NCBI GenBank assembly: GCA_951812955.1
Contig: OX638340.1
Location: 256,001 to 320,000 of the forward strand
Origin: an uncultured Gemmatimonadota bacterium
GTDB lineage: Bacteria > JAAXHH01
DNA: 64,000 nucleotides
Direction of reading: 5' to 3'
Position 1 is the stretch's first letter, and every line of letters begins with the position of its first letter. Made by a program: the position numbers and the translations under genes. Positions 39,237 to 50,057 of the stretch are shown piece by piece. The notes beneath the pieces were generated by a model that saw only the letters and a list, made by a program, of their open reading frames with translations, ran no database searches and was not told where the DNA came from.

Positions 39237-39317
39237 AAGCTATAACAACAACGGCCGTGGAAGGTGCGGTTTGCACCCGTCGCGGACCGGTTCCCACGAA
39301 GCCGGAGCTGTGAACCT

Positions 39318-42080
39318 ATGACCGAGTCGCAGAAGACCCTCTTTCTCCTGGATGGCATGGCCCTGGCCTACCGCGGTCATTTCGGCCTGATCCGCAACCC
39401 GAGGATGACCTCGACGGGCATGAACGTTTCCATGGTGTTCGCCATCGCCAATACCATCCTGGGCATTTTGAATAAGAACAAACCCACCCACATCGCCGCG
39501 GTGTTCGACACGCCCGAGCCCACTCATCGGCACGAACAGTATCCCGAGTACAAGGCGCAGCGGGACGCCATGCCCGAGGACCTGAGCATCGCCCTGCCCT
39601 ACCTGTTCCGGTTGATCGAGGGATTCAATATCCCCGTGATCCGCGTGCCCGGCTGGGAGGCCGACGACGTGATCGGCACCCTCGCGAAACAGGCCGACGA
39701 AGCGGGGTATACTACCTTCATGGTCACGCCGGACAAGGACTATGCGCAACTCGTCTCGGAGCAGTCCTTCATCTGCAAGCCCGGGAACACCGGGGACAAC
39801 TTCGAAACCATGGGCGTGGACGACGTGCTGGAGAAATGGGGGATCGAGCGCATCGACCAGGTAATCGACATGCTTGGCCTGATGGGCGACGCCAGCGACA
39901 ATGTGCCCGGCGTACCGGGAGTCGGCGAGAAGACCGCGCAGAAGCTCATCGCACAGTTCGGTTCCGTGGAGAATCTGCTTGATAACACGGAACAGTTGAA
40001 GGGCAAGCAGAAAGAGCGGATCGAGGAAAACCGGGATATTGCCCTGTTATCGAAGAGTCTCGTCACCATCGAACGGAACGTCCCGCTCGAGGTCACGCCG
40101 GATTCGTTCACCGTGAAAGACAGGTGCGATGAAGACCTGAAGAAACTGTTTGTCGAACTGGAGTTCAATACCCTGGGCAAGCGGCTATTCGGCGACGACT
40201 TCTCGGCGGCGCCAAGGTTGACCGTCGCCGGCAGCCAGGAAGACCTGTTCTCCGATGACCAGTTGAAGACGATTGCGGACGTGGAACACGATTACCGGTG
40301 CGTCGATAGCCCCGAATCCCGCGCCGCGCTCATCGAAGCACTGTCCCGTGCCTCTTCTTTCTGCTTCGACATGGAGACGACCAGCCTGGATCCCAAGACC
40401 TGTGAGATCCTCGGCTTTGCCTTCGCGATCGAGCCCCACACCGGATTCTACGTGCCCATGCCGGACGGACGGGAGGATGTACTGCGGGTCGCAGACGAAT
40501 TCCAATTCCTCTTCGACGATACCGGCAAGGAACTCATCGGGCACAACATCAAGTTCGATCTGTCCGTGCTCCGGTGGCACGGGATAACCGTCTCCTGCCG
40601 CATCTTCGACACCATGCTGGCGGCCTACGTGACCGTGCCGGACCTGCGGAGGACCATGGACTATCTGTCGCAGGCCCTCCTGGGCTACACGCCGATCTCC
40701 ATCACCACCCTCATCGGCGAGAAGGGCGAAGAGCAGGGCACGCTCAAGGATGCGCCGCTGGAGAAAGTCGTCGAATACGCGGCGGAAGACGCGGATGTCA
40801 CGCTGCAGCTAGCGGCATTGCTGCGGCCCCGGATCGGCGAGATGAACCAGGATACGGTCTTCACCGACATCGAGTGTCCCCTGGTGCCCGCCCTGGTGGA
40901 AATGGAACACGAAGGCGTGCAGATGGACGTGGGGCAGTTGGAGCACCTTTCCAGTCTGCTGGACGAAGAGATACAGCGGTCCTCGGACCGGATCACCGAA
41001 CTGGCAGGGGAACCCGTCGATTTCAATTCGGCAAAGCAGCTTGGTCACATCCTCTTCGACAAGCTGCAGATCGATCCAAACGCCAAGCGCACAGCCAAGA
41101 CCGGGCAGTATTCGACGGCGGAAGCCGTGCTCCGCAGACTGGCGCCCAAGCACGAAATCGTGGAGCAGATCCTTCATTACCGGATGTGTACCAAGCTCAA
41201 TTCCGTGTACGTGAGCCAACTGCCCCATTCCGTATTCCAGCAAACCGGTCGGGTACATACCTCCTATGAACAGGCCGTGATCGCCACCGGCCGGATCCAG
41301 TCCCACGGACCCAACCTGCAGACCATTCCGGTCCGCACGGAGATGGGCCGCCAGATCCGAAAGGCCTTCGTGCCCCGGGACGACGACTTTTTCCTGATGG
41401 CCGCGGACTATTCCCAGATCGAACTGCGCATCGCGGCCGAACTCAGCCGGGACGAAGGCATGATGGAGACCTTCATTCAGAAAGAGGACATCCACTCCGC
41501 TACGGCCATGAAAATCTATGACGTGGATCCTGACGGGGTGACCGACGAGATGCGCAGGCGCGCCAAGACCGTCAATTTCGGCATCATCTACGGCATCTCC
41601 GCCTTCGGGCTGGCCGAACGCCTCAACATCCCGAGGGGACAGGGCCAGGAATTGATCGACCAGTATTTCGCGAAGTATCCCGGCACGCGCAAGTACATGG
41701 ACGAAACGATCAAATTCGCGGAAGAGAACGGTTTCGTCGAGACCATGACAGGCCGGCGTCGGTACCTGCGTGACATTAATTCACGCAACAACACGACCAA
41801 GCGCGCCGAGGAGCGCGTCGCCATCAACTCCCGCATCCAGGGCACGGCGGCCGATCTGATCAAGCTGGCCATGACCCGGATCCACGAAGAGTTGAAAAAG
41901 CGGGAATGCAGGACCCGCATGCTGCTGCAGGTGCATGATGAACTCGTATTCGACCTGCATAAATCGGAAGAAGAGACCCTGCCCGGGCTGATCGAGGAGT
42001 GCATGCGGGGCGCACTGCCCATGACCGTGCCCATCGAGGTGGAGATCGGGATCGGCGCGAACTGGTTGGAAGCGCACTAG
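39318..42080 (+). CDS. polA: DNA polymerase I (5'-3' exonuclease, 3'-5' exonuclease and polymerase domains)
   Basis: 921 aa from MTESQKTLFLLDGMALAYRGHF. Includes ...VTPDKDYAQLV... (5' nuclease), ...CFDMETTSLD... (3' exo), and ...RRAKTVNFGIIYGIS...LQVHDELVFD... (pol motifs A-C). Confidence 0.95.
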   Translation: MTESQKTLFLLDGMALAYRGHFGLIRNPRMTSTGMNVSMVFAIANTILGILNKNKPTHIAAVFDTPEPTHRHEQYPEYKAQRDAMPEDLSIALPYLFRLIEGFNIPVIRVPGWEADDVIGTLAKQADEAGYTTFMVTPDKDYAQLVSEQSFICKPGNTGDNFETMGVDDVLEKWGIERIDQVIDMLGLMGDASDNVPGVPGVGEKTAQKLIAQFGSVENLLDNTEQLKGKQKERIEENRDIALLSKSLVTIERNVPLEVTPDSFTVKDRCDEDLKKLFVELEFNTLGKRLFGDDFSAAPRLTVAGSQEDLFSDDQLKTIADVEHDYRCVDSPESRAALIEALSRASSFCFDMETTSLDPKTCEILGFAFAIEPHTGFYVPMPDGREDVLRVADEFQFLFDDTGKELIGHNIKFDLSVLRWHGITVSCRIFDTMLAAYVTVPDLRRTMDYLSQALLGYTPISITTLIGEKGEEQGTLKDAPLEKVVEYAAEDADVTLQLAALLRPRIGEMNQDTVFTDIECPLVPALVEMEHEGVQMDVGQLEHLSSLLDEEIQRSSDRITELAGEPVDFNSAKQLGHILFDKLQIDPNAKRTAKTGQYSTAEAVLRRLAPKHEIVEQILHYRMCTKLNSVYVSQLPHSVFQQTGRVHTSYEQAVIATGRIQSHGPNLQTIPVRTEMGRQIRKAFVPRDDDFFLMAADYSQIELRIAAELSRDEGMMETFIQKEDIHSATAMKIYDVDPDGVTDEMRRRAKTVNFGIIYGISAFGLAERLNIPRGQGQELIDQYFAKYPGTRKYMDETIKFAEENGFVETMTGRRRYLRDINSRNNTTKRAEERVAINSRIQGTAADLIKLAMTRIHEELKKRECRTRMLLQVHDELVFDLHKSEEETLPGLIEECMRGALPMTVPIEVEIGIGANWLEAH

Positions 42081-42091
42081 CAAGCCGGCCG

Positions 42092-42182
42092 TAACTGGAA
42101 GATGGACATTGTCTGGAAGATTGATAGTTAACTGGAAGATGGACAGCGATCTGGAGATTCTGATCGCAGGCGGCCTGGAAGA
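42092..42182. repeat. Tandem ~37-38 bp repeat x2 plus partial third, containing five CTGGA(A)GA(T) cores at about 18-24 bp spacing, upstream of the Rieske-fusion operon
   Basis: taactggaagatggaca at 42092-42108 and 42129-42145. tctggaagattgata at 42112-42126 matches tctggagattctgat at 42150-42164. A fifth core ctggaaga is at 42175-42182. Confidence 0.85.
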
Positions 42183-42221
42183 CATCAGCGAAAATCACAC
42201 AAACAGAAAGGCAAGGATTCC

Positions 42222-44012
42222 ATGAGCTCAGGAAACGGCTGGATCCGGGTCGGAACTACGACCGACATAGCGCCCGGGGAATCCCGCGCCGTTAGAATCA
42301 GCGAGGGCCGCAGCGTTGCCCTCTTCAACGTCAACGGCCGGATACATGCTACCGACAACCAATGTCCCCACATGGGGTTTCCACTGACCCGCGGCGTGGT
42401 GAAGGACGGCATCCTGACGTGCGACTGGCATGGCCGCAGTTTCGATCTGGAAGGCGGCGGCTGCTTCAATTACGAATGCGACGACCTGGAGACGTACCCC
42501 GTCGACATTCGAGGAGATGAACTGTGGGTGCAGGCCGGGGACGCCACCTACAAGCGGCGGGACCAGCACCTGCAACTGCTCTGGGAGGGCCTGCTGAGCG
42601 GGGACTCGTGGACGATTTCGAAGGCCACTGCCCTCCTTCTGTCCGGTGGTGTTTCAGAACACGACATCGTGCAGTTGATCTTGCGCCACCTGGGCCGTCA
42701 CGTCGCGTCGGAACGGGACGCGGGCGGCGGCGGCGATGTCGTTTCACTCCTGGTCTCCGGTCTTGAAGTCGGCAAAAGGTTTGACGGAGAAGACCGGCTG
42801 ATGGCGTTGTCGCTGGCCGGCCGCGCAGCGTCGGGTAGGGCGTCGGAAAGGCTCGAGGTCATTACGCTGCCCCCTCCCGTCCGCTGGGATCAGATAGACG
42901 ACTGGGTACGCATGTTTTCCCGAAACATGCAGGATTTCCGTATCGAACGGTGTTTGCACACGGCCTGCGAGAACGGCCACCAGGACCATATCTTCAAACT
43001 GTTGTTCGAGTGTGCGGTGGCGCCGTACTTCCTCGGATTTTCCCGAAACGTGGCCAGCCTGGGTGATCTCGCAAGGGTGGTGGATACCTTCGGATGGGGC
43101 GAGGCGTCCGAACTGGTCTGCAACCTCGGCGCAAAGATGACGGGCCGAGGGCGCGACGAGCCGGAGCGGTTTCACCGGGATGCCGTCCGGCTGCTCACCG
43201 AACTCGCGCCTGAACTGGAATCACATGATTACGAAGGGAACACGCGCACGGAATACGACGAGAACGCCCTCGTGGACGCCCTGTTGAGCGTCGATATCGA
43301 GCGGTCTTTCGAAGCCGTGACACGGGCCCTGCGGGACGGCGTGGCGATCGAGCGTCTTATCACGACCTTCGTGCTGCTCGCCGCCGACCGCATGGCGCGT
43401 ACGCCCGTGAACGTCGACGCGGGGTGGGGACCGCTGTCCACCGAGTTCAACCTGGCGGCTTCCCTGCGACATGTCCACGCATACGGTGGGCCCGCTGCAG
43501 CGGCGAAGGGCCTGTACCATGCGGCCTGGCAGATTTTCGACAACCGATGGATCAATATCCCCGCACGGTCGCTCGACGAACCCCTTCCCGCCCATCGAAC
43601 GGACACACCGGACGCGGCAGCCGCTTCGGATCTCATTGTCCATTCCATCAAGTCGCTGGATATCCACGGGGTGGGCGATCAGGTGGTGGGTTACCTCAAC
43701 AGCGGATTCGACGGGTCGGACCTGCTCAAGGAAGTGGGACGGGCGATCCTGTGGGACGATACCAACATGGAGCTCCTTCCCACACTGCGCGTCGCGTTCA
43801 ACGAATGGGAAGGTTCAGGGGGTGGCGCAGGCGGCGGAGACGCAAGCGGGGGTGGCGCAGGTGGAAAGGGCCATCCGTCCCGGTATCAGCTCCTGGTGGG
43901 ACTGGTGCGCTACGCCACGGATGTGCGATTGAACAAGAACAGCATGGCCTCCATCAACACGGCCATGCGATTTTCTGAAGGCCGGACGACCGTAGAGGTG
44001 TTCGACGAATAA
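42222..44012 (+). CDS. Rieske [2Fe-2S] domain (NirD / Rieske-ferredoxin-like) fused to a ~480-aa C-terminal domain of unknown function
   Basis: N-terminus CPHMGFPLTRGVVKDGILTCDWHG (CxH-x16-CxxH) ...LETYPV. The rest is helical-looking, with no motif I recognise. Confidence 0.7.
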   Translation: MSSGNGWIRVGTTTDIAPGESRAVRISEGRSVALFNVNGRIHATDNQCPHMGFPLTRGVVKDGILTCDWHGRSFDLEGGGCFNYECDDLETYPVDIRGDELWVQAGDATYKRRDQHLQLLWEGLLSGDSWTISKATALLLSGGVSEHDIVQLILRHLGRHVASERDAGGGGDVVSLLVSGLEVGKRFDGEDRLMALSLAGRAASGRASERLEVITLPPPVRWDQIDDWVRMFSRNMQDFRIERCLHTACENGHQDHIFKLLFECAVAPYFLGFSRNVASLGDLARVVDTFGWGEASELVCNLGAKMTGRGRDEPERFHRDAVRLLTELAPELESHDYEGNTRTEYDENALVDALLSVDIERSFEAVTRALRDGVAIERLITTFVLLAADRMARTPVNVDAGWGPLSTEFNLAASLRHVHAYGGPAAAAKGLYHAAWQIFDNRWINIPARSLDEPLPAHRTDTPDAAAASDLIVHSIKSLDIHGVGDQVVGYLNSGFDGSDLLKEVGRAILWDDTNMELLPTLRVAFNEWEGSGGGAGGGDASGGGAGGKGHPSRYQLLVGLVRYATDVRLNKNSMASINTAMRFSEGRTTVEVFDE

Positions 44013-44036
44013 CGAACAACGGAGAGGTAACGGAAT

Positions 44037-45788
44037 ATGTCAACGGAACAAAACGGATTCGTACGGGTGGCGGCAACGGACGAAGTGGTGGACGGCAAGC
44101 CCAAGGCCGTCAAGGTGGAGGGAAGGAGCATCGCCCTCTTCAAGCATAACGGGTCGGTATACGCCACGGACAATCAATGTCCGCACATGGGATACCCGCT
44201 CACGAGAGGGCGCGTTCGCAACGGCGTGCTGACCTGCGACTGGCACGGATGGAGTTACGACCTCGGCGGCGGCGGTTGCTTCACCGGCGGGTGCGATGAC
44301 CTGGAGACCTTTCCGGTCGAGGTGCGAAACGGCGACGTGTTCGTGAACGTAAGCGAAGGCGGATCAAAAAGGTCGGACGCACACTTCCTGCTCTTGAAGG
44401 AAGGACTCTATTCAACGGATCAGTGGACCATCTCGAAGGCCGTGGCCATCATGCTGGCCCGGGGCGTGTCCGAGACGGACACGTTGAACCTCATCATCCG
44501 TCACGGCGGCCGTCACGTCGCGACTGAACGGGGCGCCAACGATGGTGGTGGAGAGGTCTCCGATTTCATCAATGGGATCAAGGTGGCCCGACAGTACGAG
44601 AGCGACGACCGGATCATCCCGTTGACCTTTGCCGCCCACGGGCTATCCGGTCGCGCGGGGGACCGGCCGAGCATCCAGCGGCTGCCCGATCCGATCACCT
44701 GGGAGAAAATCGAGGGATGGATCCGGGTGTTCTCCAAAGACAAGCAATGGGAAGGCATCGAGAAGTGCCTGATCACCGCCCGACGGCTGGGTGGACACGA
44801 TGGCGAGATCCTGCCGCTGCTCTACGAATGCGCCGTAGCCCCGCATTTCCTGGGCAATTCGAACAATTTGCTCAACATCGGCTACATCGCGGAAGTACTC
44901 GAGGAATTCGGCTGGGACGAAGCAGAGGAACTGGTCTGCAACCTCTCGGCCAAGATCCTGGGACAGGAGCGGGGACTGCCCGACGAGATCAGGCAGTCGG
45001 CCATCGACCGGTTCATCGCCGACACCGAAACGCTGGATTCCATCGGCGACAGACCATCTGACGGTTCCGACGCAGCCTTCGACGAAGACGCCTTCGCGGA
45101 GGGTCTGGTCAGCGGCGAAATCGGACCGACCTTCGGCGTGGTTACCCAGGCGCTCAAAGACGGCGTTTCTATCGAGCGCATCGTGACGACCATGGTGGTG
45201 CTCGCGGCGGACCGCATGGCGCGCACGCCGGTTAACATGAACCCGGGATGGGGAGGCCTGGTCCGCGAGATGATGATGGCCAGCGCAATCCGAAAGGCTT
45301 TGAGGTACGGTGGGCACCGAGTCGCCGCCCAGGGTCTGTACCACGTCGCCTGGCAATTCTACGGCGACCGGTGGCTGAATATCACCCATCGTCCGTTGTC
45401 CGAGGCGCGCGGAGACTTGCAGCCGGGCAGCGCGGACGAATCCGAAGCTATCGAAGGCGTCCTTTCTTCCATCGAGCAGATCCAGATCAGGGATATCGGA
45501 AGACAGACCCGGGATTACCTGCGGTCGGGGTACTCGGGCGACGCGTTGCTCCGGGAGCTCGGTCTCGTGATCCTCAAGGACGACAACGGCCGGAACATCC
45601 TGTCCACGCTGCGTACGATCTTCGACGAATGGACCTGGTGCGAAGATCACCCTTCGCGCAACCAGTTGCTGGTCGGCCTCGCACGCTGGGCCACCGACGT
45701 ACGCCGCGCCACGGGAAGCCAGTCCGCCGCCGCGACCGCCCTGCGATTCGCCAAGGGCCAGACCGCGGTGGACCTGTACGAGGCGTAA
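44037..45788 (+). CDS. Rieske-domain fusion protein, tandem paralog of 42222..44012
   Basis: CPHMGYPLTRGRVRNGVLTCDWHG. Conserved C-terminal blocks are shared with the paralog: RHxGRHVAxER, ECAVAPxFLG, ELVCNL, LAADRMARTPVN, GLYHxAWQ, LLVGLxRxATDVR. GGAGAGG SD; 24 bp after the upstream stop. Confidence 0.7.
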   Translation: MSTEQNGFVRVAATDEVVDGKPKAVKVEGRSIALFKHNGSVYATDNQCPHMGYPLTRGRVRNGVLTCDWHGWSYDLGGGGCFTGGCDDLETFPVEVRNGDVFVNVSEGGSKRSDAHFLLLKEGLYSTDQWTISKAVAIMLARGVSETDTLNLIIRHGGRHVATERGANDGGGEVSDFINGIKVARQYESDDRIIPLTFAAHGLSGRAGDRPSIQRLPDPITWEKIEGWIRVFSKDKQWEGIEKCLITARRLGGHDGEILPLLYECAVAPHFLGNSNNLLNIGYIAEVLEEFGWDEAEELVCNLSAKILGQERGLPDEIRQSAIDRFIADTETLDSIGDRPSDGSDAAFDEDAFAEGLVSGEIGPTFGVVTQALKDGVSIERIVTTMVVLAADRMARTPVNMNPGWGGLVREMMMASAIRKALRYGGHRVAAQGLYHVAWQFYGDRWLNITHRPLSEARGDLQPGSADESEAIEGVLSSIEQIQIRDIGRQTRDYLRSGYSGDALLRELGLVILKDDNGRNILSTLRTIFDEWTWCEDHPSRNQLLVGLARWATDVRRATGSQSAAATALRFAKGQTAVDLYEA

Positions 45789-45820
45789 CATGGGTTGAAT
45801 CGGTTGCGAGGTGAATGGGC

Positions 45821-47122
45821 ATGGACACCGATCATTCTGGCAAGCGTCTTTACGAATGCTATCATCAAGACCCCGACGAGGCCGACCGGATTCTGTTCGG
45901 ACGCCGTACTCACCCGGACCGTCGCGGATTCCTTAAGAACGCGGGCCTGGCGGCCATGGGCGTGCTGGTCGGCGCCGCGATACCCTTTCATCGCAACGTC
46001 CCTGCCCATTTCATTCCGGTCGTGCTCGCCGCAGAGAACACCATTCAGGGCAAGGACGGCCTGACTGTCCTCAACGATCGCCCCATGTGCGCGGAAACGC
46101 CGCCACACCTCCTCGACGACGCCATAACACCCACCGCAAGACACTTCGTCCGCAATAACGGATTGATGCCGGAAGACCTGGACGCATCGCGCTGGAAACT
46201 GGCGATCGACGGACTGGTCGACAGTCCGTTGATACTCACCCTCGAGGATCTTGAAGGCCGGTTCGAGGTCGTCACCCGGGCGTTGACCCTGGAATGCGCG
46301 GGAAACGGCCGGGCATTCTTCGACCCGAAGACGAATGGCGAACAGTGGACCTACGGTGCCGTTGCCTGCTCGGAATGGACGGGAGTGCGGTTTTCCGACG
46401 TACTGACGGCCGCCGGAATGAAGCGCGAAGCCGTCTACACCGCGCACTACGGCGCCGATACCCACCTGTCCGGTGTGGAGGCCGGACTTCCCATCTCCCG
46501 CGGCGTACCGATCGAAAAGGCCATGGATGGACACAGCCTCATCGCCTTCGCACAGAACGGGCGGCCGATCCACCCGACGAACGGCGGCCCATTGCGGCTG
46601 ATCATACCGGGATGGCCCGGGTCTTGTTCCCAGAAATGGTTGACCCGCATTGAGATTCGGGACCAGGTACACGACGGACCCAAGATGACCGGCTCGTCCT
46701 ATCGGTTGCCGAGTCGAAGGATCGAACCCGGCGAGGCCGTGGACGAAAAAGACTTCCAAATCATAGAAAGCATGCCGGTAAAGTCGCTCATCACCCACCC
46801 GGCGACGGGGCACAGATCGAATGACAGATCAGTGGAAGTACGGGGACATGCGTGGACGGGTGAGGGACGCGTCACCGCGGTTGATCTTTCGATCGACTTC
46901 GGGTCAACCTGGAAGCGTGCGTCGCTGGAGGAACCGGTCAACGCCTTCGCCTGGCAGAACTGGCGCGCTTCGTTCTCGTTTCCACAGGCGGGGTATTACG
47001 AGGTTTGGGCGAGAGCCACCGACTCTCTGGGCGTCAGCCAGCCCCACGCCATCGCGTGGAATCCGGGTGGCTACCTAAACAACGCCATGCACCGCGTCGC
47101 GGTGTACGTGGAATCTGAATAG
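45821..47122 (+). CDS. Sulfite-oxidase-family molybdopterin oxidoreductase (SorA-like), Tat-exported
   Basis: Twin-arginine motif DRRGFLKNAGLAAMGVLVGAA, the Mo-ligand Cys context LTLECAGNGRAFF, and a C-terminal dimerisation (Ig-like) region. GAGGTG lies 7 nt upstream of ATG 45821; an ATG at 45815 is also in frame. Confidence 0.8.
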   Translation: MDTDHSGKRLYECYHQDPDEADRILFGRRTHPDRRGFLKNAGLAAMGVLVGAAIPFHRNVPAHFIPVVLAAENTIQGKDGLTVLNDRPMCAETPPHLLDDAITPTARHFVRNNGLMPEDLDASRWKLAIDGLVDSPLILTLEDLEGRFEVVTRALTLECAGNGRAFFDPKTNGEQWTYGAVACSEWTGVRFSDVLTAAGMKREAVYTAHYGADTHLSGVEAGLPISRGVPIEKAMDGHSLIAFAQNGRPIHPTNGGPLRLIIPGWPGSCSQKWLTRIEIRDQVHDGPKMTGSSYRLPSRRIEPGEAVDEKDFQIIESMPVKSLITHPATGHRSNDRSVEVRGHAWTGEGRVTAVDLSIDFGSTWKRASLEEPVNAFAWQNWRASFSFPQAGYYEVWARATDSLGVSQPHAIAWNPGGYLNNAMHRVAVYVESE

Positions 47123-47208
47123 ACCTGAACGATTCCTACCAATTCGAAAATGCCTTTGTAGTTACGACTATTCAATAAAGGGATTTGGATAGAAGCATTG
47201 AGTTACTA

Positions 47209-47237
47209 TTGACAATGTATCAATTTTGATACACATT
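47209..47237 (+). promoter_or_regulatory. Candidate promoter (TTGACA) with an overlapping 8-bp inverted-repeat operator upstream of the toxin-antitoxin pair
   Basis: TTGACA at 47209-47214. TGTATCAA-tt-TTGATACA (47216-47233) is an inverted repeat where a -10 element would sit. The patch is AT-rich. Confidence 0.4.
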
Positions 47238-47248
47238 GAAACTACGAC

Positions 47249-47593
47249 ATGCACATATTGCGCGTCGTTTTTTACACGACTAAAACAGGTCGCGAACCGG
47301 TTCGTGACTGGATGGCGTCTCTAACCCGTGACGAAAAGAAGATTGTAGGAGTGGATTTAAAAACAGTCCAGTTCGGCTGGCCTTTGGGCATGCCACAAGT
47401 GCGCAAACTGGATCGTGGGATTTGGGAAGTAAGGTCAGCACTTAAAGGGCGCATAGCACGAGTGCTGTTCACAGTTCAAGGTAACAGCATCGTTTTATTA
47501 CACGGGTTCATCAAGAAGGTTCGTAAGACGCCCTATCAGGATCTACGTCTCGCAAAAACACGATTGGCTACGTTGGGAGATACGTCAGGATGA
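47249..47593 (+). CDS. Type II toxin, RelE/ParE superfamily (HigB / Gp49-like)
   Basis: 114 aa. ...GIWEVRSALKGRIARVLF...IVLLHGFIKKVRKTPYQDLRLAKTR matches the phage-related-protein toxin fold. Low local GC. Overlaps the next gene by ATGA. Confidence 0.75.
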   Translation: MHILRVVFYTTKTGREPVRDWMASLTRDEKKIVGVDLKTVQFGWPLGMPQVRKLDRGIWEVRSALKGRIARVLFTVQGNSIVLLHGFIKKVRKTPYQDLRLAKTRLATLGDTSG

Positions 47594-47877
47594 CTTCGGA
47601 TGACCGTCACATTGGAAGCGACTTCGATCTATACCTGAAGGAAGAAGGACTGATTGTAGAAGTTGAAAGAGTCGCGATAAAGCGTGCAGTCGCCTATCAA
47701 GTAGCTCAATTCATGTTGAATCAAGGTCTGAGCAAGACAGAAATGGCCCGGCGCATGCGCACAAGTCGCGCCTCACTGGATCGTCTTCTTGATCCTAACA
47801 ATGGATCTGTCACACTGCAAACCCTGGAACGGGCGGCCGATGCACTGGGACGGCGCTTGCATATCTCGCTGGTTTGA
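47590..47877 (+). CDS. HTH (XRE-type) antitoxin, HigA-like
   Basis: 95 aa. C-terminal helix-turn-helix ...QGLSKTEMARRMRTSRASLDRLL.... 4-bp overlap with the toxin gene. Confidence 0.7.
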   Translation: MTSDDRHIGSDFDLYLKEEGLIVEVERVAIKRAVAYQVAQFMLNQGLSKTEMARRMRTSRASLDRLLDPNNGSVTLQTLERAADALGRRLHISLV

Positions 47878-48878: not shown

Positions 48879-50057
48879 TCAGCCCTCGTTTTTTGTCTTC
48901 AGTATGACGTTCTCGGATTCCCTTTCCCATGTTTCGTTGTAGACCAGTGGCCTCGGTCTGCGCGGCGGGTAATCCGGAGGGGGATTATCCGGGTCGTTCA
49001 GCTCCAGGCGGTCGCGGCCCCGGGGCGCTTCGTACCAGTGTTTTTCCCGTTCGGCCGCTTCAATCTCCCTTCGGAGGATGAACTCCGCGTGATCGAAACC
49101 GGAGATCGCCGCGTCCGCCAGAAACACGCGGTGCACCTCGCGGCCGTCCCAGGTTTCCAGGTCCGGCAGGATCACGGGGCCCGTGCAGACCTGAAACTCG
49201 GCGTCTTCTTCGTTAATATTGATCAGATCCACAGGAAACTCAAGGGTAACCTGCATGTTCCGGTCCGCCCGGTCCGCCCGGTCCGCCTGGTCCGCCTGGC
49301 CAGCTTGGACTGTTTGGCTCGCCTGGCCTGCTTGACCCGTTTGACCCGTTTGACCCGCTAGGCCCGGCTGGTCCGGATCATGACAGACAGTCCAGGCGAT
49401 CCTGCCATTCATGAGATCCCGGTTGATCGTCGCGTCCACGACAGCCCGCGCGTCCGTCAGGGTTTCCTCGGAATCATACTGCCTGATATCGATTTCGTGG
49501 GCCTGGAATTGTTTTTCAAGCGGAGTACCCCTGTATTCGGCGGCCTCGTTACTCGGTCTTCGCGATATAGGGATGCTCTGACTTCGGCTAAACGCCATGC
49601 GCCATTCGTCGCTGGGAATCTGAAAGAGGTTTCGGCGGGCGATCGTGTATTCCGTGCGACACGGAGCGCCCAGGTAAATTTCGGTACGGTGTCCCGAGTC
49701 CAGGTCTTCCACGGTACAGGCCGCCTCGAGGTGGAACCGCACCTGGTAGGCCTGTCCCGGCACCCCGACAAAACCGCCCGTATACTTGTAGACCGGATCG
49801 GGTTTCCAGGGCGAGGATTTCCAGTGGAAAGAAGAGCGATGGAAAGCGATCATGGGCCTGGTCTTCGGCTTGGTCTTTGTGGCATTCGCATACCGGGCCA
49901 TCCGGGCTTGAAATGTGCTTCTCTCATTTGTACCGATTTGATGCGGCAATGTCCCAAAATGACCTATTCTACCCATGCAGGCAATACAAAACTGCGTTTC
50001 CGCCCTGCGGACCGCGACCGTGATTTTTGTTGCGAGCGTGGGGTCCGCAGGATACAT
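48879..50057 (-). CDS. Hypothetical protein with an internal 3-aa-periodic low-complexity tract (GQT/GQA/ADQ/ADR repeats)
   Basis: Long ORF with a clear stop at 48879. Start uncertain: candidate ATGs at 50057, 49976, 49901 and 49853, none with a good SD. The repeat PGLAGQTGQTGQAGQASQTVQAGQADQADRADRADR separates two non-repetitive domains. Confidence 0.35.
   Translation of the reverse strand: MYPADPTLATKITVAVRRAETQFCIACMGRIGHFGTLPHQIGTNERSTFQARMARYANATKTKPKTRPMIAFHRSSFHWKSSPWKPDPVYKYTGGFVGVPGQAYQVRFHLEAACTVEDLDSGHRTEIYLGAPCRTEYTIARRNLFQIPSDEWRMAFSRSQSIPISRRPSNEAAEYRGTPLEKQFQAHEIDIRQYDSEETLTDARAVVDATINRDLMNGRIAWTVCHDPDQPGLAGQTGQTGQAGQASQTVQAGQADQADRADRADRNMQVTLEFPVDLININEEDAEFQVCTGPVILPDLETWDGREVHRVFLADAAISGFDHAEFILRREIEAAEREKHWYEAPRGRDRLELNDPDNPPPDYPPRRPRPLVYNETWERESENVILKTKNEG
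49261..49380. repeat. 9-bp-periodic degenerate tandem repeat inside a CDS (encodes the GQx/ADx tract)
   Basis: cggtccgcc x3, tggtccgcc, ... tgacccgtt x2, tgacccgct ...; a decaying 9-mer array. Confidence 0.8.

Follow-up and report, generated by a model that had tools for sequence, protein, structure and literature searches.

A conserved tandem pair of Rieske proteins fused to a large, predicted all-alpha domain without annotation

Rieske oxygenases are well known to be built of a Rieske domain at the N-terminus and a catalytic domain at the C-terminus. The alpha subunits of these enzymes (NdoB, CarAa, KshA, SxtT) are oligomeric, with one subunit's cluster working for the active site of the adjacent subunit, and their larger C-terminal domain adopts an alpha/beta fold of the Bet v1/START-like kind and contains an iron site of the 2-His-1-carboxylate type. 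Soluble Rieske ferredoxins and NirD proteins (BphA3/BphF, T4moC, CarAc, NirD) are stand-alone proteins of ~105 aa. The DUF4243 or "questin oxidase" dioxygenases (BTG13, 7Y3W; PaD, 8Z4Q; GedK; BruN), a recently discovered class, are in the literature that we examined stand-alone biosynthetic enzymes without a Rieske domain, known from fungi, from plants, and from bacteria as OzmD; that literature characterizes them mainly in fungal natural-product pathways. Their iron site is defined by four His side chains together with one carboxylated Lys, which in PaD are H63, H166, H317, H394, and K397. Enzymes of the SorAB, SoxCD, and MsrPQ type have periplasmic c-type cytochromes or membrane b-type heme proteins as their known partners.

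The window analyzed here, the whole stretch of 64,000 nucleotides, contains two adjacent genes, A and B, followed by a third, C (Table 1). An earlier note, made from the sequence alone, had placed two neighboring genes for ~590-aa proteins at this site, and the open reading frames agree exactly with the coordinates it gave. The 24-bp A–B gap with a good Shine–Dalgarno sequence that it described is as reported, and its gap of ~30 bp between B and C, also with a Shine–Dalgarno sequence, measures 26 bp to the first ATG of C and 32 bp to the second (45821), with GAGGTG preceding. Neither junction has a terminator-like site in this window. Pairwise alignment of A and B gives 46% identity and 66% positives over the full length, far beyond chance, and all of the blocks that the note had listed as common to the two C-terminal domains (RHxGRHVAxER, ECAVAPxFLG, ELVCNL, GLYHxAWQ, LLVGLxRxATDVR) are present in both proteins. 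A and B are tandem duplicates, both with a Rieske domain joined to a large domain that lacks annotation; with lengths of 583–596 aa and an extension of ~470 aa, they are unlike the stand-alone Rieske ferredoxins and NirD.

Table 1. Features of the A–B locus and the adjoining gene C, in window coordinates.
Feature	Position	Strand	Basis
Gene A, 596-aa Rieske-helical fusion, upstream paralog	42222..44012	+	ORF and translation
Gene A Rieske [2Fe-2S] domain, residues ~7-104, C48-P-H50 ... C67-D-W-H70	42240..42533	+	PF00355 E 1e-16, PF13806 E 3.7e-13
Gene A all-alpha C-terminal domain, residues 110-596	42549..44009	+	Predicted helical
A-B spacer, 24 bp, GGAGAGG ribosome-binding site	44013..44036	+	Sequence inspection
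Gene B, 583-aa Rieske-helical fusion, downstream paralog	44037..45788	+	ORF and translation
Gene B Rieske [2Fe-2S] domain, residues ~8-104	44058..44348	+	Pfam
Gene B all-alpha C-terminal domain, residues 110-583, 22 helices	44364..45785	+	Predicted structure
Gene C, 435-aa Tat-exported sulfite-oxidase-family molybdoenzyme, judged outside the A-B module	45815..47122	+	Pfam, NCBIfam, synteny

Both proteins match PF00355 (E 1e-16 for A and 2e-20 for B) and Rieske_2 over residues ~7–104, and the four ligands in the motif C48-P-H50-x16-C67-D-W-H70 are invariant among 56 homologs. This motif is of the N-terminal CxH-x15–17-CxxH form found in Rieske oxygenase alpha subunits; the domain as a whole is nearer to the ferredoxin components than to the oxygenase alpha subunits, and we assign it to the soluble ferredoxin type. 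A and B fall below the equivalog cutoffs of both NirD (TIGR02378; 53.8 and 50.7 bits against 74.65) and HcaC (43.6 and 45.0 bits against 150), and they differ from both families by an extra invariant cysteine pair, C81 and C86. Direct reading of the N-termini revealed neither a hydrophobic nor a twin-arginine leader in A or B. These results bear out the earlier description of a NirD/Rieske-ferredoxin-like N-terminus without a signal peptide, and A and B are predicted to be cytoplasmic. No Pfam domain other than Rieske was detected in either protein.

The gene pair is widely conserved. We collected 80 related genome loci from MAGs labelled Latescibacterota, Gemmatimonadota, Acidobacteriota, and Poribacteria and divided them into 21 close-clade loci (B at least 88% identical) and 59 distant loci. 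The two genes share a strand, with A upstream of B, in 78 of the 80, the remaining two being cut by contig ends, and the A–B gap is at most 150 bp in 52 loci. Orthologs of A paired with B are 53–91% identical and those of B, from MAGs labelled with several phyla, 58–99%; between MAGs of different phylum label these values are 53–60% and 58–66%, respectively, versus 46% between A and B. At 127 positions, among them every Rieske ligand and a large number of charged residues, conservation is at least 95% in both paralogs, whereas fixed differences between A and B are found at only 13, a pattern that fits a pseudo-symmetric heteromer. The duplication is probably old, and the two copies are equally constrained. 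When the 1,004 ORFs of the 80 loci were clustered all against all, no conserved partner gene emerged across clades besides A and B themselves. A–B is an autonomous two-gene module, kept together in bacteria labelled as several phyla. By inspection, sigma-70-like hexamers are present just upstream of A in two Poribacteria loci (L031 and L046). Repeats upstream of A were weighed as an operator candidate and rejected: they are tandem duplications of the 3' end of polA that vary between strains.

The C-terminal domain (residue ~110 to the end) has no match in Pfam-A or NCBIfam at E ≤ 0.1; the earlier note had recognized no motif there. When Pfam was searched at E ≤ 10 with 48 family members (A, B, and 46 relatives), the only C-terminal matches were two faint ones to MgsA_C (E 0.023), and none of the 48 matched PF14027. 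Profile searches of the PDB with three different alignments returned Rieske matches or noise only, with neither 7Y3W nor 8Z4Q among them at E ≤ 10. The best 50 Foldseek matches in the PDB are exclusively Rieske, and oxygenase entries found by structure comparison align over the Rieske part only (~100–125 residues). The domain is predicted to be entirely helical, with ~470 residues and 22 helices, and structure comparison identified BTG13 and PaD as the best and sole global fold match of both paralogs. The predicted domain thus resembles the DUF4243 non-heme-iron dioxygenases in its overall all-alpha fold of ~22 helices, with a helix count equal to that of PaD; at 7–10% identity this resemblance is at the fold level only. 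The earlier description of the domain as unrecognized holds for its sequence, but in its predicted fold the domain resembles a characterized enzyme family. In contrast to the known DUF4243 members, A and B are bacterial, Rieske-fused, and paired, and the spacing of their conserved His and Lys residues does not match the defining iron site. Database entries name the relatives of A and B only as "Rieske (2Fe-2S) protein" or "nitrite reductase/ring-hydroxylating ferredoxin subunit," our literature search found no publication pairing Rieske with questin oxidase, and the DUF4243 literature that we examined does not mention Rieske fusions. A Rieske domain joined to a large unannotated domain and duplicated in tandem appears to be an undescribed architecture; in this part the earlier claim of novelty stands, but the link to a periplasmic molybdoenzyme that it included does not (see below).

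Searches also identified a sister subfamily (P0297-like) of >2,300 proteins labelled Chloroflexota, Deinococcus, Zixibacteria, Entotheonellia, and Latescibacteria. Its members have the same two-domain architecture and length as A and B at ~20% identity (single-sequence searches reach E 1e-22) and share with them K134, E242, R312, R393, W405, R445, N448, D516, R550, and R570. Unlike A and B, they are not paired in tandem in the three contexts inspected, where each stands as a single gene, and these contexts have no consistent neighbor genes. Five histidines (H268, H275, H401, H524, and H561) and K282 are invariant in the sister subfamily; the corresponding positions in A and B are P269, a variable residue, P398, N520, D554, and, for the lysine, Y283, so that any ancestral His-rich site would be gone from A and B. 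In the alignment of the whole superfamily only E242 and R393 are invariant, with G376 and W405 nearly so, which is unlike a shared catalytic metal site. Many of the residues that are invariant in A and B are found at helix ends and in loops (392–398, 445–448, 516, 531–543, and 554–556), and these align near the invariant histidines of the sister subfamily. This coincidence suggests one conserved functional pocket that would have an altered chemistry in A and B. Some sister modules are fused to signaling output domains: a class III adenylate cyclase is C-terminal to the module in P0343, P0399 (a cluster of 21 sequences), P0430, and P0499, a soluble Ser/Thr kinase is N-terminal to it in P0505, in which no hydrophobic linker was seen, and an ECF sigma factor is N-terminal to it in P0339. 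Our literature search found no publication on fusions of a Rieske domain and an adenylate cyclase.

We posit, with a probability of roughly 0.4, that A and B are paired subunits of a cytoplasmic, heteromeric Rieske redox protein of an undescribed family, whose mechanism we infer as follows. A–B would operate in the manner of the alpha subunit of a Rieske oxygenase, but on another catalytic scaffold: single electrons would move between the Rieske cluster and the conserved, polar pocket of the helical domain, perhaps the pocket of the partner subunit, and a small molecule would be oxidized or reduced there. The strict co-occurrence and constant order of the two genes and the core conserved in both paralogs lend indirect support to a physical complex of A and B. 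The order of domains, an N-terminal Rieske domain and a larger C-terminal domain, is that of the alpha subunits; however, the C-terminal domain of A and B is all-alpha in place of the Bet v1/START-like domain with its 2-His-1-carboxylate site, and no Ring_hydroxyl_A or VanA_C-type Pfam family was detected in either protein. This reading is weakened by the lack of any PF14027 match in sequence, even up to E = 10, together with the Rieske-only Foldseek matches, and A–B has no linked genes for a reductase partner or a substrate pathway. The output-domain fusions of the sister subfamily also count against it, as they favor sensing over catalysis.

Those fusions are the main argument for an alternative that we consider unlikely but worth weighing, namely that the Rieske and helical domains together form a sensory module for redox state, O2, or a small ligand, with the stand-alone A–B pair signaling through protein–protein contacts instead of catalysis. 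The attachment of the sister module to a cyclase, a kinase, and a sigma factor possibly points to a sensing role in that subfamily, and the absence of conserved metabolic neighbors from both groups, like the restriction of strict invariance to E242 and R393, is in keeping with a sensor. However, the fusions are a small minority (4/120 among the matches listed), all of them in the sister subfamily, and enzyme domains too are occasionally fused to cyclases. A and B themselves have no output or DNA-binding domain, and in our judgement their 58–66% identity across phylum labels and 127 shared positions are far above what is expected of a sensor domain. We know of no established Rieske-based sensor.

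A second alternative takes the fold match at face value: the helical domain of A and B would bind a mononuclear iron and cleave or oxygenate a hydroquinone-like aromatic, as BTG13 and PaD do, with the Rieske domain keeping the iron reduced or supplying electrons. In addition to the global fold match of both paralogs and the helix count of PaD, the invariant H116, H156, H538, and K134 of A and B and the nearly invariant H436 add up to four histidines and one lysine; H436 lies at about the fractional position of PaD H317, and H538-P-x-R541 recalls H394-x-x-K397, although these parallels are numerology and not alignment. The conserved His and Lys residues of A and B are found 7, 22, 44, 324, and 426 residues into the domain, compared with 63, 166, 317, 394, and 397 in PaD, and the position that resembles the lysine of HxxK is an arginine, which is not carboxylatable. 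The very low identity, the lack of a PF14027 match, and the loss from A and B of the histidine set of the sister subfamily also argue against this alternative, which we regard as improbable. Moreover, BTG13-type enzymes have no need of external electrons, and a separate reductase readies their substrate (PMC12173810, PMC11575538).

The adjoining gene C encodes, as the earlier note had noticed, a Tat-exported enzyme of the sulfite oxidase family directly 3' of B: it matches Oxidored_molyb (4.8e-50) and Mo-co_dimer (1.8e-20), and its TAT signal scores above the cutoff of TIGR01409. It is a relative of the SorAB, SoxCD, and MsrPQ enzymes, with a Mo-binding Cys motif, and falls below the equivalog cutoffs of SorA, SoxC, and SorT. 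The note had joined A–B and C into a functional unit with A and B as dedicated electron carriers, but the genome neighborhoods of the homologs speak against this. C is present in 18 of the 21 close-clade loci and nowhere else, being absent within ±8 kb from all 59 distant loci (50 of them with at least 3 kb of downstream flank). Even within the close clade, 1.2–5.0 kb of mobile or defense genes (Sel1-repeat, Fic, DUF262, and methyltransferase genes) separate B from C in 8 of the 18 C-bearing loci, and two loci lack C altogether. The other genes around A–B in the window are housekeeping genes (polA, PDH E1, accD, purF, ETF). A sulfur-metabolism context, which gene C and FGE-like genes inserted in Poribacteria had brought to mind, is unsupported given these housekeeping surroundings and the clade-specific nature of the insertions. 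The predicted cytoplasmic location of A and B, together with the Tat signal of C, implies that A and B cannot be direct electron carriers of C, and they share neither the compartment nor the conserved linkage of the SorAB/SoxCD type of partner. Despite the common orientation of the three genes, their short spacers with ribosome-binding sites, the lack of terminator-like junction sites, and the position of C at most 200 bp from B in 10 close-clade loci, a partnership of A and B with C, whether as electron carriers, as pathway partners, or through a cytoplasmic desulfonating step that frees sulfite for oxidation by C in the periplasm, is very improbable, already largely refuted by synteny. On this comparative evidence we consider A–B to be unrelated in function to C.

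Beyond the preferred reading of A and B as paired subunits of a Rieske redox protein, we tentatively advance a broader one, to which we give somewhat less credence. A, B, and the sister subfamily may belong to one bacterial superfamily, so far unrecognized, that connects a Rieske cluster with an all-alpha domain of BTG13-like fold and would be, next to the classical Rieske oxygenases, a second structural route to oxygen or redox chemistry coupled to a Rieske cluster. The His-rich branch may also have been recruited to sense redox state or O2 on behalf of cyclases, kinases, and sigma factors, and the A/B branch may be an obligate heterodimer in which the His-rich site has given way to an Arg/Asp/Glu-rich pocket with new chemistry. 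If so, thousands of entries named "Rieske (2Fe-2S) protein" would have in common an unannotated domain remotely related in structure to BTG13 and PaD, and the fusion of Rieske to a BTG13-like scaffold would be a second structural type of Rieske-paired catalytic domain. The cyclase, kinase, and sigma factor fusions raise the possibility of a Rieske-based sensor. For annotation, the helical domain merits its own family model, and the adjoining sulfite-oxidase-family gene is no guide to the function of A and B. In Poribacteria associated with sponges and in MAGs labelled Latescibacterota that derive from sponges and corals, A–B is highly conserved, which makes it a reasonable target for heterologous characterization.

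Genes A and B encode paralogous proteins that are 46% identical when aligned end to end; an earlier note on this DNA had recognized them as tandem paralogs. Both proteins contain a Rieske domain at residues ~7–104 (Pfam E values of 1e-16 and 2e-20, respectively) with the motif C48-P-H50-x16-C67-D-W-H70. The earlier note also described a Rieske N-terminus lacking a signal peptide and an unrecognized C-terminal domain, and both descriptions hold: neither protein has a signal peptide, and the remaining ~470 residues (the C-domain) have no Pfam or NCBIfam match. The Rieske domain includes an additional cysteine pair, C81/C86 (GGGCFxxxCDDL), that is invariant in all 56 A/B orthologs, is kept in one distant P0277-like branch, and is missing from most members of a His-rich sister branch of Rieske-helical proteins; this pair could form a disulfide or provide an additional metal or redox site.

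Features of the A–B–C region in window coordinates
Feature	Position	Strand	Remark
polA	39264..42080		upstream of A
CTGGAAGA-like direct repeats	42085-42200		five copies, polA–A intergenic region
gene A	42222..44012	+	ORF, 596 aa
C81/C86 motif of A	42462-42479		
gene B	44037..45788	+	ORF, 583 aa
C81/C86 motif of B	44277-44294		
gene C	45815..47122	+	ORF, 435 aa
Gp49/HigB-like toxin gene	47249..47593		between C and PhyH-family gene
HTH antitoxin gene	47590..47877		4-bp overlap with toxin gene
PhyH-family dioxygenase gene		-	downstream of toxin/antitoxin pair
392-aa ORF	48879-50057	-	unannotated, adjoins PhyH-family gene

The ORFs of A, B, and C, the last encoding a sulfite-oxidase-family molybdoenzyme, match exactly those placed by the earlier note. 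Reading of the sequence shows a 24-bp A–B spacer containing GGAGAGG and a 26-bp B–C spacer with GAGGTG ahead of the C ATG, and neither junction contains a terminator-like site. The farther neighbors are housekeeping genes (PDH E1, a thioredoxin-TPR protein, a PNP-family phosphorylase, accD, purF, ETF, and acyl-CoA dehydrogenase). Repeats comparable to those upstream of A lie just 5' of A in four other surveyed loci (L009, L010, L011, and L019) and, judged by sequence, look like tandem duplications of the final ~20 bases of polA (AACTGGCTGGAAGCGCACTAG). Because their copy number and sequence vary among closely related genomes, we regard the tract as a hypervariable microduplication and rule out a conserved operator. 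Downstream, collinearity with the closest relative (locus L001, ~96% DNA identity) is lost across the toxin gene; positions 47111-47612 correspond to only ~270 bp in L001, from which the toxin gene may be absent. The 392-aa ORF has no Pfam or NCBIfam match and is kept beside the PhyH-family gene, at 67–91% identity, in loci of the close clade (B at least 88% identical to B of the window).

Word-indexed searches retrieved 833 homologs with B and 881 with A as the query; the best 120 of each set are ~580-aa proteins named solely "Rieske (2Fe-2S) protein" or "nitrite reductase/ring-hydroxylating ferredoxin subunit". Scanning one genome per species yielded 80 loci, in 78 of which an A ortholog lies 5' of a B ortholog on the same strand, the other two being cut by a contig end. 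The close clade (B 88–99% identical) consists of uncultured bacteria, several of them known from assemblies associated with sponges or corals, and the distant loci (B 58–69% identical) belong to MAGs labelled Acidobacteriota (Blastocatellia, Bryobacteraceae), other Latescibacterota, and many Poribacteria. Public taxonomic labels of the close-clade lineage are inconsistent: loci with A–B 88–99% identical (L001–L019, L044, and L052) are labelled "Candidatus Latescibacterota", "Gemmatimonadetes/Gemmatimonadota", or plain "bacterium". The A–B gap is at most 150 bp in 52 loci and exceeds 1 kb in 16. In Poribacteria, an FGE/SUMF1-like gene (257 aa; L041, L049, L054, L061, and L073) or an ankyrin-repeat gene (~425 aa; ~20 loci, e.g., L046 and L063–L066), both assigned by our own reading of the sequences, lies between A and B, splitting them by up to 6 kb, or directly 5' of A. 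Across MAGs of different phylum labels, A orthologs are 53–60% and B orthologs 58–66% identical, which exceeds the identity between A and B; the duplication is thus an old one of which both copies were retained. A total of 127 positions are at least 95% conserved in both A and B and only 13 are fixed differences, a sequence pattern consistent with A and B being similar subunits of one complex. Clustering of all 1,004 ORFs from the 80 loci revealed no other gene family common to different clades.

A confident AlphaFold2 model of full-length B, built from a 56-sequence alignment (pLDDT 87.7, pTM 0.85), has a β-rich Rieske domain followed by 22 helices, and the C-domain of A was modelled alone with similar scores (pLDDT 88.7, pTM 0.89). 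In these predictions, the fold match of the C-domain to BTG13 (7y3w_A) and PaD (8z4q_A) is specific and reproducible. BTG13 and PaD are DUF4243 all-α non-heme-iron dioxygenases with an unusual iron site of four histidines and one carboxylated lysine; PaD, which like the B model has 22 helices, uses H63, H166, H317, H394, and K397, and the related BruN uses H63, H166, H308, H386, and Kcx389 (PMC12173810, PMC11371914, PMC11575538). The DUF4243 profile (PF14027) gives no match even at E<=10 and PDB profile searches did not retrieve the BTG13/PaD entries; the modelled likeness is one of fold only, without a sequence-level link.

We propose, with a probability of roughly 0.4, that A and B assemble into a heteromeric Rieske redox protein of the cytoplasm, in which electrons would pass between the cluster and a ligand pocket of the BTG13-like helical domain, following the logic of a Rieske oxygenase on a different scaffold. 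Four observations lead us to prefer this reading tentatively: the layout is that of a Rieske domain joined to a catalytic domain, the fold matches that of enzymes, conservation is very high between MAGs with distant labels, and the genes are strictly paired.

Searching 1.84 billion cluster representatives exhaustively by HMMER, with the B C-domain as the query, gave only 232 matches at E<=1e-3, of which three are close full-length clusters and the others are fragments or distant relatives (21–30% identity). Most distant relatives likewise combine a Rieske and a helical domain in ~580–600 aa; a small number have no Rieske part or contain WD40 or DUF1080-like domains. The largest of the distant branches, the sister branch, was searched by profile and comprises >2,300 proteins, with labels that include Chloroflexota, Deinococcus, Zixibacteria, Entotheonellia, and Latescibacteria; in the three contexts that were read, they are encoded by single genes without conserved neighbors. 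Some of its members are fused to class III adenylate cyclases (proteins P0343, P0399, P0430, and P0499), a soluble Ser/Thr kinase (P0505), or an ECF sigma factor (P0339), which hints that the module may serve as a Rieske-based sensory input domain. The main rival to an A–B redox protein, supported by these fusions, is that A and B form a sensor; we consider this less likely, since such fusions are rare, the sister branch is distant in sequence from A/B, and A and B have no output domain.

The helical domain of the sister branch has five invariant histidines (H268, H275, H401, H524, and H561) and two invariant lysines (K134 and K282), a set suggestive of a metal site. In A/B, the histidine positions hold P269, a variable residue, P398, N520, and D554, and Y283 replaces K282; K134, E242, R312, R393, W405, R445, N448, D516, R550, and R570 are common to both branches. 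A/B have their own invariant residues (H116, H156, H538, D128, E146, E298, E350, D392, E411, E531, and many arginines) and a near-invariant H436, and much of this set lies at helix ends or in loops, aligned near the sister-branch histidines. We read this alignment as one functional pocket whose chemistry probably differs between the branches. A true BTG13-type iron dioxygenase is improbable: the His and Lys residues conserved in A/B are out of step with the DUF4243 spacing, and the sister-branch histidine set is lost.

Gene C, which the earlier note had recognized as a Tat-exported member of the sulfite-oxidase family, encodes a protein with a Tat signal and the two domains of that family, and scores under the SorA, SoxC, and SorT cutoffs. 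It is present in 18 loci, every one in the close clade, is missing from two close-clade loci despite a full 8-kb flank, and occurs within ±8 kb in none of the 59 distant loci, 50 of which have at least 3 kb downstream of B. The B–C distance is 30–199 bp in 10 of the 18 loci and 1.2–5.0 kb in the other eight. In the close clade, this junction is a hot spot for insertions (L003, L007, L008, L009, L010, L013, L019, and L044), with 1.2–5-kb cassettes encoding, by our reading of translated ORFs, Sel1-repeat proteins, a Fic-family protein, a DUF262-like protein, and a DNA methyltransferase. Given these frequent insertions, co-transcription of C with A–B is not required, and B–C adjacency in so closely related a clade mostly reflects shared ancestry. 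The most striking part of the earlier claim, a redox system joining A/B to C, thus fails on distribution and insertions and also on compartments, A/B being cytoplasmic and C Tat-exported; we judge such a partnership highly improbable.

Neither Pfam nor NCBIfam has a model of the helical domain, source databases name these proteins by "Rieske" alone, and our literature search found no paper on a Rieske–DUF4243-like architecture; the partner domain also differs from those of known Rieske-coupled redox proteins. The A/B family is real, widespread, and strongly conserved, and offers a testable lead, a Rieske cluster that we infer to work with a BTG13-like scaffold; the sister branch may in addition include Rieske-based sensors.
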